A stretch of DNA of 26,434 bases, taken from IMG/VR virus record IMGVR_UViG_2778261342_000002, one strand, 5' to 3'. This stretch comes from a virus. Its lineage: Duplodnaviria; Heunggongvirae; Uroviricota; Caudoviricetes. The position numbers were made by a program. Within the stretch, counting starts at the first letter, position 1. Each line of letters begins with the position of its first letter. Shown piece after piece: positions 18,001 to 21,000 of this stretch.

Positions 18001-21000
18001 AGTGCCCGCGCCTCCGCCAATGAGTCGTGGCGCTATTTTATGGGACGACGAAAATTTATTGCGGCCCGGCTGGCCACGCAGATGTTTTCCTGCTGGCTGG
18101 AAGAGGCACTTCTTCGGGGGATTATCCGTCCGCCACGGGCACGTTTTGATTTTTATCAGGCGCGATCAGCCTGGTCACGGGCAGAGTGGATTGGTGCCGG
18201 AAGAATGGCCATTGACGGGCTCAAGGAGGTCCAGGAATCGGTGATGCGTATTGATTCCGGACTGAGCACCTATGAGAAAGAGCTGGCGCTGATGGGTGAG
18301 GATTATCAGGACATTTTCCGCCAGCAGGTCAGGGAATCCGCAGAGCGGGAAAAGGCCGGACTCTCACGTCCGGTGTGGATAGCGCAGGCGTATCAGCAGC
18401 AGATAGCGGAGAGCCGCAGGCCGGAAGAGGAGACAACACCACGTGAGACGTAATCTTTCACACATTATTGCCGCAGCGTTCAATGAACCGCTGCTTCTGG
18501 AGCCCGCCTATGCGCGGGTTTTCTTTTGCGCGCTGGGGCGCGAGATGGGGGCAGCAAGTCTTTCGGTTCCACAACAGCAGGTGCAGCTTGATGCTCCCGG
18601 AATGCTGGCTGAAACGGACGAGTACATGGCCGGAGGTAAACGACCGGCCCGTGTTTACCGGGTGGTGAACGGTATTGCTGTACTGCCGGTGACCGGCACG
18701 CTGGTGCACCGGCTGGGTGGCATGCGGCCATTTTCCGGAATGACAGGCTATGACGGCATTGTCGCCTGTCTTCAGCAGGCAATGGCGGATAGCCAGGTGC
18801 GGGGCGTATTGCTGGACATTGACAGTCCGGGCGGGCAGGCCGCAGGCGCGTTTGACTGCGCTGACATGATTTACCGCCTCCGGCAGCAGAAGCCGGTCTG
18901 GGCACTGTGTAATGACACGGCCTGTTCTGCAGCCATGCTGCTGGCGTCGGCCTGCTCCCGACGGCTGGTTACCCAGACATCCCGTATCGGCTCCATTGGC
19001 GTGATGATGAGCCATGTCAGCTATGCCGGTCATCTGGCGCAGGCCGGAGTGGATATCACGCTGATTTATGCCGGGGCGCATAAGGTGGATGGCAATCAGT
19101 TTGAAGCGTTACCGTCAGAGGTGCGTCAGGACATGCAGCAGCGCATTGATGCGGCGCACCGGATGTTTGCCGAAAAAGTGGCGATGTATACCGGGCTGTC
19201 TGTGGATGCGGTCACGGGGACAGAGGCTGCCGTTTTTGAAGGTCAGTCCGGTATTGAGGCCGGACTGGCGGATGAATTAATCAATGCGTCGGATGCCATC
19301 AGTGTGATGGCTGCGGCGCTGAACACACATGATACAGGAGGCACTATGCCGCAATTAACTGCAACGGAAGCTGCCGCGCAGGAGAACCAGCGTGTGATGG
19401 GGATCCTGACGTGTCAGGAAGCGAAAGGACGTGAACAGCTTGCCACGATGCTGGCAGGACAACAGGGCATGAGCGTTGAACAGGCCCGGGCGATTCTGGC
19501 CGCGGCAGCATCACAGCAGCCGGTGGCATCCGCGCAGAGTGAAGCCGATCGCATTATGGCGTGTGAAGAAGCGAAAGGTCGTGAACAACTGGCGGCAACG
19601 CTGGCGGCGATGCCGGATATGACGGTGGAAAAAGCCCGCCCTGTCCTGGCGGCTGCACCACGGGCGGATGCCGGGCCCTCACTCCGTGATCAGATTATGG
19701 ATCTGGATGAGGCGAAAGGGGCTGAGACGCTGGCTGAAAAACTGGCGGCGTTTCCCGGAATGACTGTGGAGGCTGCCCGAGACATGCTGGCCTCATCGTC
19801 GGATAAAGCAGAACCGGTCTCTGCATCCACAACCGCCCTGTTTGAACGGTTCATGGCGAACCATTCACCGGCAGCGGTGCAGGGTGGCGTGTCACAGGCG
19901 TCAGCAGACGGTGATGCGGACGTGAAAATGCTCATGGCCATGCCATGAAGTCAGTGCTGACCATCAATACGAGGTTTTAACAATATGGTGACGAAAACCA
20001 TCACTGAACAGCGTGCGGAAGTACGTATTTTTGCCGGTAATGATCCGGCTCACACTGCCACAGGCAGCAGCGGGATTTCTTCTGCAACACCGGCTCTGAC
20101 GCCCCTGATGCTGGATGAAGCCAGCGGGAAACTGGTGGTCTGGGACGGACAGAAAGCCGGTAGTGCGGCTGGCATACTGGTACTGCCGCTTGAAGGCACA
20201 GAGACGGTGCTGACCTATTACAAGTCGGGGACCTTTGCGACGGAGGCAATCCGCTGGCCTGAACGTGTGGATGAACACAAAAAGGCAAACGCCTTTGTCG
20301 GCACAGCCCTGAGTCACGCGGCGCTGCCGTAACACGTTATCAGGCCACTGCGTTGGCCTGACTGATTTCTTAATGAAAGGAACTGATTTATGGGATTGTT
20401 TACGACCCGCCAGTTACTCGGTTATACCGAACAAAAAGTGAAATTTCGTGCGCTGTTTCTGGAACTGTTTTTCCGCCGTACGGTGAATTTCCATACCGAA
20501 GAGGTGATGCTGGACAAAATTACCGGAAAAACGCCGGTGGCAGCCTATGTCTCCCCGGTTGTTGAAGGAAAAGTGCTGCGTCATCGTGGTGGTGAAACCC
20601 GCGTGTTACGTCCGGGCTACGTCAAGCCGAAACACGAATTTAATTACCAGCAGGCGGTGGAGCGCCTTCCCGGTGAAGATCCGGTGCAGCTGAACGACCC
20701 GGCCTACCGTCGTCTGCGTATCATTACCGATAACCTCAAACAGGAAGAGCATGCCATTGTCCAGGTGGAAGAAATGCAGGCGGTGAATGCCGTGCTGTAT
20801 GGCAAATACACCATGGAAGGGGAGCAGTTTGATACTGTCGAGGTGGATTTCGGGCGCTCTGAAGGAAATAACATTGAGCAGGCTGATGGTAAAAAATGGT
20901 CTGAGCAGGACCGTGATACGTTTGATCCGACGCATGATATTGACCTCTACTGCGATCAGGCCAGCGGTCTTGTGAATATCGCCATTATGGACGGTACGGT

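Follow-up and report, generated by a model that had tools for sequence, protein, structure and literature searches.

A tandem triplication in the protease/scaffold gene of a Shiga toxin prophage very probably corresponds to the Tri boxes of phage 21

The window, a stretch of 26,434 nucleotides (nt) from a Caudoviricetes virus (IMG/VR record IMGVR_UViG_2778261342_000002), contains a gene for a C-type head maturation protease fused to a scaffold (18443..19948, + strand; 501 amino acids (aa), of the lambda C / phage 21 gene 5 type). The C-terminal third of the product, which is also read as part of a nested scaffold frame known as Nu3 in lambda, contains three in-frame tandem copies of a 47-aa unit of which lambda has one. 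The copies are, with very little doubt, the 'Tri1', 'Tri' and 'Tri3' boxes of phage 21, a known and ordinary triplication. The best explanation overall, which we consider likely, is an ancient in-frame triplication of lambda's single helical module, recorded in phage 21 as the Tri boxes and perhaps acting as a multivalent scaffold module.

Three tandem units in the scaffold region

Unit 1 spans 19379..19519 (+ strand; 79.9 bits with a hidden Markov model (HMM) of the unit), unit 2 spans 19529..19669 (+ strand; 77.8 bits) and unit 3 spans 19670..19810 (+ strand; 74.4 bits), with periods of 50 and 47 aa. Their ungapped alignment of 47 columns has 17 that are invariant (I, EAKG, E, LA, LA, M, VE, AR, LA), and the consensus reads ..IM...EAKGrEqLA..LAa.PgMTVE.AR..LAaa. 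Pairs of units are 44–52% identical over 44 aa. Their BLOSUM62 local scores are 108, 77 and 99, compared with averages of 20–23 for shuffled sequences (standard deviation about 4–4.6); the corresponding z values are 14.6–19, and not one of 2000 shuffles equals the observed score. A first-pass annotation made by reading the sequence had described three homologous tandem units here. Both the homology and its coordinates and consensus hold, the units being found at 19379-19810 and matching the aligned consensus.

At the nucleotide level, likeness is limited to the cores of the units. Identity is 79.6% across 49 nt for units 1 and 2 (E = 1e-8) and 70.8% across 65 nt for units 2 and 3 (E = 8e-5). 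Tandem Repeats Finder reports no array in 18000-21000, the repeat being too diverged at the DNA level, and a blastp comparison of the Nu3 frame with itself returns the diagonal only; explicit pairwise alignments and shuffles were used in its place. Because DNA similarity is confined to the cores and Tandem Repeats Finder returns nothing, the repeat is read as an old duplication that is conserved as protein.

All three units lie within the nested frame, which is 200 aa long (19346..19948, + strand), is equivalent to lambda Nu3 and phage 21 gp6, and is predicted to be translated separately. A Shine-Dalgarno (SD) sequence, AGGAGG (19336-19341), stands 4 nt ahead of an in-frame ATG at 19346 (together 19336..19348, + strand, as read from the sequence) and supplies two Gly codons of the longer protein. 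Sequence comparison finds this internal SD and ATG to be kept in phage 21, Gifsy-1, N15, phi80 and lambda. An internal ribosome-binding site (RBS) and the start of gene 6 are annotated in the phage 21 records M81255.1 and OL657228.1, and a scaffold start is likewise annotated in N15. The repeat had been placed inside a nested Nu3 frame at first pass, and this is borne out, the start being the same as that of phage 21 gene 6. The frame has three matched stretches, one per unit, to each of PHROG phrog_8399 ('head scaffolding protein') and phrog_8940 ('capsid assembly protein').

Correspondence with the Tri boxes of phage 21

Megablast identifies the full-length gene in 19 isolated phages, including phage 21, at 91–96% identity. 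The phage 21 record M81255.1 ('Bacteriophage 21 head gene operon') aligns with the window gene over all 1506 nt in a single gap-free alignment at 94.1% nucleotide identity. Gene 6 of this record has three repeat_region features, 'Tri1 box', 'Tri box' and 'Tri3 box', which GenBank marks as 'function unknown; putative'. Mapped onto the window, these features are the cores of the three independently found units: the Tri1 box (19413-19516) falls in unit 1, the Tri box (19553-19663) in unit 2 and the Tri3 box (19694-19807) in unit 3. The triplication is already known, as the GenBank feature table indicates that it was recognised by those who sequenced phage 21; the boxes were recognised and named in the early 1990s. 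The first-pass annotation had presented the feature as something unusual. It is instead a standard allele of the phage-21-type head module, with its Tri boxes already marked in M81255.1.

Phage 21 genes 5 and 6, which encode the head-tail preconnector gp5 and the scaffold gp6, resemble the window gene in length (1506 nt, 501 aa), in the internal RBS and ATG, in the 200-aa nested frame and in the positions of all units. The two differ by about 11.5% at the amino acid level in the Nu3 part, and this divergence is concentrated in unit 3. They also differ in setting, as the element that carries the window gene is a prophage encoding Shiga toxin (Stx), unlike phage 21.

Relatives with one and three units

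Translated C genes from lambda, N15, phi80 and the Aeromonas phage phiARM81ld contain one unit, and those from phage 21 and Gifsy-1 contain three. The unit is the segment of Nu3 that the lambda, N15, phage 21, Gifsy-1 and Aeromonas phage proteins have in common. Lambda C/Nu3, N15 gp5/gp6 and phi80 gp5 share the head gene order, the internal SD and ATG and a related tail with the window, but have one unit where the window has three. The single lambda copy claimed at first pass is the one unit found in translated lambda C. That annotation also put the window protein at about 60 aa longer than its lambda counterpart, which agrees with a C length of 501 aa in the window and 426 aa annotated in the lambda record used (OR974322.1). 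In the classical lambda annotation (J02459), C is 439 aa long. Translation from the conserved internal ATG would give 200 aa in the window, compared with 131 aa in lambda and 137 in N15.

This difference in length is composite. Relative to lambda, the nested frame of the window gains 97 aa from two extra units and 8 aa in the tail, and loses 36 aa in the spacer that precedes the first unit. The EAxG core lies 60–66 residues after the ATG in one-unit proteins and 24 after it in three-unit proteins; the spacer of the former, longer by 36–42 aa, is rich in Ser, Thr, Ala, Gln and Val. Unit 1 is 57–59% identical to the units of lambda and N15, and an 'R[VI]MGIL' N-terminus is common to all of them. 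Judged by these comparisons, unit 1 is the orthologue of the single lambda unit, and the head module in its entirety is orthologous to that of lambda but diverged from it, with about 60% identity in the protease part, 58% in the decoration protein and 62% in capsid protein E.

The lambda record OR974322.1 also contains an internal GGAGG and in-frame ATG ('SGGRM'; extract L003, about 1381-1776) that would give a 131-aa product, the counterpart of N15 gp6 and phage 21 gp6. The record annotates nu3 from an upstream ATG instead (5132, 201 aa).

Another three-unit relative is the gpC homologue of the Salmonella phage Gifsy-1 (STM2605; 498 aa), which has three units in the same order as the window and is accompanied by a capsid protein 88% identical to that of the window. 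The Nu3 part, however, is only 53% identical, and the host is Salmonella. Compared with window units at the same position, the Gifsy-1 units are 73, 70 and 64% identical, against 39–57% for other positions. Gifsy-1 unit 2, for example, is 70% identical to window unit 2, 48% to unit 1 and 55% to unit 3.

Copy number among genomes and protein clusters

Copy number was surveyed with a profile search of a representative protein library, annotated genome collections and a local HMM of the unit. Among 5426 complete Escherichia coli genomes, 1870 contain the three-unit Nu3 region, at 2922 places in total. In 40 rows sampled evenly across the ranking of these places, 38 have exactly the 603-nt length. 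The lambda-type one-unit region occurs at 4563 places in 3228 E. coli genomes. When a profile of the window units is compared with 1.84 billion representative proteins, 642 clusters (defined at 50% identity) carry the unit at E <= 1e-3, and 126 of the 150 best clusters have a single matched stretch. A search for homologues with the 200-aa frame returns mostly fragments and no full-length 501-aa entry.

The local HMM finds four units in one protein (P0025), which corresponds to an intact 538-aa 'S49 family peptidase' from E. coli STEC309 (WP_096934546.1; L014 2548-4164). The four-unit form is present in 106 of the 5426 complete E. coli genomes and was not found among the isolated phages of the collection. 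Its units 2–4 are 77–84% identical to each other, which indicates a younger duplication or homogenisation. Capsid proteins that accompany the three- and four-unit forms are 84–88% identical to that of the window (84% in the four-unit lineage, 88% in Gifsy-1); the figure for the one-unit lambda form is only 62%. In one locus (L013 1-1043) the four-unit lambda-like head module is followed by baseplate genes of a contractile tail (GPW_gp25, Baseplate_J).

Copy number differs between lineages and, in rare cases, within one, as shortened alleles of the phage-21-type gene also occur. Rare in-frame deletions remove the second half or most of unit 2 (WP_001253887.1 of strain WP3-W18-ESBL-08, 482 aa, L009 298-1746; also P0016 and P0021) or part of unit 3 (P0010), and P0022 shows a clean crossover between units 1 and 2 that leaves two units.

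Two further proteins with the unit stand apart from the head modules described above. In Bradyrhizobium barranii, a stand-alone protein of 163 aa (P0091; L010/L012 6001-6492) consists of two units. It is preceded by a small-terminase-like gene, followed by a gene for an unassignable 297-aa protein and a tape-measure gene, and has a DnaB/AAA_25-like gene upstream; the locus may represent a satellite, or else a reduced prophage whose scaffold is separate. The neighbours that were examined give no clear capsid or protease assignment, and the locus therefore adds no functional evidence. The second protein (P0156, 258 aa, from the representative library) has a Gifsy-1-type C-terminus in which every Ala is changed to Val, Thr to Ile or Met, Pro to Leu or Phe, and Arg to Cys or Trp. 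Translating DNA with each C converted to T would be expected to produce these changes, and the entry therefore probably comes from a bisulfite-converted sequencing run.

Age, direction and selection

One unit is probably the ancestral state, from which the three-unit form expanded. Multi-unit proteins score higher with the unit profile and should be concentrated among the best clusters, and yet 126 of these 150 have a single stretch, which argues that one unit is the general state. The N-terminus of unit 1 ('RVMGIL' in the window) still has the 'R[VI]MGIL' form seen in single-unit proteins, which favours a gain from one unit over a loss in lambda. The proposal of an expansion relative to lambda thus stands, with its direction probably from one unit. 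The converse possibility raised at first pass, that three copies are the common ancestral form and lambda the exception, fares less well, given the dominance of single-unit clusters. The expansion is also old, since the Gifsy-1 units are closest to window units at the same position, and three units appear as the mark of the phage-21/Gifsy-1 head lineage.

Selection was estimated by the Nei-Gojobori method from the window and phage 21, as the ratio of nonsynonymous to synonymous substitution rates (dN/dS). It comes to 0.12 over aa 1–300 (the protease part) and to 0.23 over all three units. By unit, from small counts, it is 0.06 (unit 1), 0.64 (unit 2) and 0.19 (unit 3). Unit 1 is the most constrained segment, and the tail has a ratio of 0.97 (6 substitutions). 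On these values the units are shown, as coding sequence, to be under purifying selection. In unit 3 (19679-19810) dS relative to phage 21 is 0.80, compared with about 0.05–0.17 in the rest of the gene; this locally high dS suggests that a mosaic junction between alleles lies within the scaffold region.

Predicted structure

No Pfam family is found on the unit, even with single units at E <= 10, and sequence searches of the PDB with Nu3 and with the unit profile give chance matches only. An AlphaFold2 (AF2) model from the single sequence has a predicted local distance difference test (pLDDT) of 58.7. With an alignment of 22 sequences the mean pLDDT is 69.8 and the predicted template modelling score (pTM) is 0.28. 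In this second model pLDDT is about 77–83 in the units, with block means of about 50–66 between units and after unit 3, and falls below 50 at residues 58–63 and 153–157. Each unit is predicted to contain a short helix (..RIM..), a second helix (EQLA..LA), a PGMT loop and a third helix (VE.AR..LAAA). The low pTM argues against a fixed packing between units, and the model indicates independent helical modules arranged as beads on a string. Foldseek searches with both models against the PDB, and also BFVD, give no match at E < 1.

The region after unit 3 (19811..19945, + strand) is modelled as a helix (..TTALFERFMANH..), then a disordered stretch, and ends in the conserved hydrophobic C-terminus MLMAMP. 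The predicted helix (..ALFERFM..) covers Nu3 residues 160–173, and the remainder of the tail is largely disordered, with pLDDT < 50 over much of it. This tail is common to one-, three- and four-unit forms, with related sequences in lambda, N15, Gifsy-1 and the four-unit protein.

Proposed function and alternative explanations

A multivalent binding module is put forward as a plausible though tentative mechanism, from the predicted models and by analogy with other scaffolds. Each unit would fold by itself into helix A, helix B, the 'PGMT' loop and helix C, held on flexible linkers. It would provide a protein–protein contact through which the scaffold and the fused protease engage the inside of the assembling shell, with the major capsid protein (gp7/E) as the putative partner and possibly also the portal or other scaffold chains. 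The units would tether the fused protease inside the prohead. Three units would give three binding sites per chain, and so a multivalent, larger scaffold, in which the extra units would stand in for the roughly 36–42-aa longer Ser/Thr/Ala/Gln-rich spacer of one-unit proteins. Ahead of DNA packaging, the S49 protease would cut away this entire region, as happens in lambda. The unit is taken as a putative protein-binding module of the scaffold because it is common to the lambda, N15, phage 21, Gifsy-1 and Aeromonas Nu3 proteins and is under purifying selection. More broadly and more speculatively, the 47-aa unit could be a scaffold interaction module, widespread and so far uncharacterised, whose copy number would set scaffold valency and stoichiometry in each capsid lineage. 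At first pass, repeat expansion had been suggested as a possible influence on capsid assembly.

Lambda Nu3 is an internal scaffold that self-associates and is needed for portal incorporation, and published interaction data include contacts of Nu3 with itself, B, C and E (PMC3224144). Helical or helix-turn-helix (HTH) elements are the coat-binding parts of the P22, SPP1, phi29 and 80alpha scaffolds (PMC11565965). The C-terminal HTH coat-binding domain of the P22 scaffold is similar to the proposed module as a small helical hairpin in a flexible scaffold, in a T=7-type capsid of HK97 fold. This is a functional analogy only: PDB sequence and Foldseek searches give no sequence or significant fold similarity between that domain and the units. 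The P22 element is single and at the extreme C-terminus, whereas the units of the window are internal and repeated and their capsid binding is putative.

Several observations weigh against a multivalent shell-binding module. The units stop short of the extreme C-terminus, since unit 3 is followed by a conserved tail of 45 aa, and this tail may itself be what binds the shell. Prophages with natural in-frame deletions in units 2 and 3 exist, and a full set of three intact units may therefore not be an absolute requirement. The dN/dS of unit 2 is high at 0.64, although it rests on 9 substitutions. Confidence in the AF2 model is moderate, as the mean pLDDT given above indicates. Finally, the searches as run assign the unit no Pfam family, PDB sequence match or significant fold match, and the GenBank note quoted for the Tri boxes gives their function as unknown and putative.

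The first of these points bears on the main alternative, a somewhat doubtful one, in which the units are scaffold–scaffold oligomerisation or portal-recruitment modules, the tail (..FERFM.. / ..MLMAMP) makes the shell contact, and the extra units enlarge or cross-link the core. The extreme C-terminus is the shell-binding part in other protease/scaffold systems (P22, P2 gpO, the HK97 protease), and in the one-, three- and four-unit proteins alike a conserved helix and hydrophobic C-terminus follow the last unit. The self-association of lambda Nu3 and its role in portal incorporation (PMC3224144) would also fit. However, the tail is almost neutral relative to phage 21 (dN/dS 0.97, from 6 substitutions), and the most constrained segment is unit 1 (0.06). 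Alternatively, the two extra units may be redundant, a neutral or nearly neutral expansion fixed in the phage-21/Gifsy-1 lineage and serving mainly as a spacer in place of the low-complexity linker of lambda. The short spacer before unit 1 (24 aa, as against 60–66 aa in one-unit proteins) is consistent with such a replacement. The unit 1/unit 2 crossover and the four-unit form also speak for this reading, and the natural deletion variants in units 2 and 3 leave scope for partial redundancy. This reading is nevertheless unlikely, as the 17 invariant positions of unit 1 are kept in units 2 and 3, each unit retains its positional counterpart in Gifsy-1 even though overall divergence is about 50%, the units have a dN/dS of 0.23, and nearly all of the sampled E. 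coli copies have one and the same length.

Two further explanations have little in their favour. A role for the repeat as DNA, for example in CII-dependent antisense promoters, or a helix-hairpin-helix (HhH)-like fold with DNA binding by the scaffold, is very improbable. Record OL657228.1 marks two minus-strand TTGYN6TTGY matches inside gene 6, but this is a pattern annotation; the window has 3 such matches where 5.7 are expected by chance, they are out of register with the units, and the similarity of the units is weaker in DNA than in protein. The string 'LA..PGMTVE.AR.IL' is superficially HhH-like, and RuvA, which has tandem HhH elements, is the top fold match of the weaker, low-confidence model. 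That match is not significant (E = 1.5) and is not reproduced with the better model, no Pfam HhH match is obtained for the units at E <= 10, and the Gly-hydrophobic-Gly hairpin is missing, the units reading GMS, DMT and GMT at this position; both the HhH identity and the RuvA lead were rejected. A recent recombination scar, which the first-pass annotation had offered as one interpretation, or an assembly artefact of this prophage, can be almost entirely discounted. Phage 21, 18 other isolated phages, Gifsy-1 and 1870 E. coli genomes all have the same architecture, the Gifsy-1 units match by position, the frame is intact and under purifying selection (dN/dS 0.23), and the 603-nt length is kept in 38 of the 40 sampled rows. 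The local dS of 0.80 in unit 3 is the one observation in that direction, and it points to allelic mosaicism rather than to a scar.

Operon and prophage context

The protease/scaffold gene starts with GTG and overlaps the end of the portal gene. Its 501-aa product matches PHROG phrog_53 ('head maturation protease') over its full length (E = 2.7e-222). The S49 (ClpP/SppA-like) peptidase domain lies in the N-terminal two thirds, at aa 146–293 (18878..19321, + strand; Pfam PF01343, E = 1.7e-35), with 122.7 bits against a cut-off of 24.9 and a match to profile positions 3–151 of 154. A portal-like open reading frame (16861-18453) lies directly upstream, and genes for a lambda-D-type decoration protein (HDPD, PF02924; 19985-20332) and a lambda-E-type major capsid protein (Phage_cap_E, PF03864; 20390-21418) lie downstream. 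This order of portal, protease, decoration and capsid genes is that of the phage 21, lambda, N15 and Gifsy-1 records.

Further to the left, the window contains the genes for the Shiga toxin A subunit (6537-7496; Pfam RIP) and B subunit (7508-7777; Pfam SLT_beta). Ahead of this operon are three tRNA genes, Met-CAT, Arg-TCG and Arg-TCT (6189-6440), and after it is a gene for a NanS-p-like esterase (DUF1737+SASA+DUF6645; 8290-10254). The left 9 kb of the window is 95–96% identical to 933W and other Stx2a phages, and represents a 933W-like early and toxin region. As the late region has a phage-21-type head module and not that of 933W, the prophage is read as a mosaic of 933W-like and phage-21-type parts.

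A link between the repeat and Stx phages was considered and rejected, as the Tri-box allele belongs to the phage-21-type late module and is present in many non-Stx prophages. The comparison among Stx phages advised at first pass gives the same picture: the feature is not Stx-specific, and among the phages of the collection those with Stx1a have the lambda-type allele with one unit. The Nu3 region of strain JNEC-KY175, for example, is 100% identical to that of the window, and no toxin gene is listed in the prophage region annotated there.

A convergent gene pair, 12186-12806 (+) and 12748-13815 (-), is inserted after the lysis cassette and ahead of the gene for the small terminase. One gene matches PADLOC 'cll' (E = 2e-31), and the other matches Pfam Beta_protein (E = 7.8e-56) and PADLOC PD-Lambda-2_C (E = 7e-32). 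The pair is a candidate anti-phage defence moron.

Significance

As an ordinary phage-21-type allele that is present in about a third of sequenced E. coli, the feature carries little weight for genome annotation, and nothing points to a new kind of system or to a link with Shiga toxin biology. Its residual value lies in the unit itself, which has no domain-family entry or structure and is found in 1, 3 or 4 copies, occasionally 2, across head-module lineages. For research on phage assembly, the natural series of one, two, three and four units is a cheap natural experiment on scaffold valency. If the valency reading is true, it would provide a ready-made allelic set for examining how multivalent contacts between scaffold and shell drive assembly of the T=7 procapsid.

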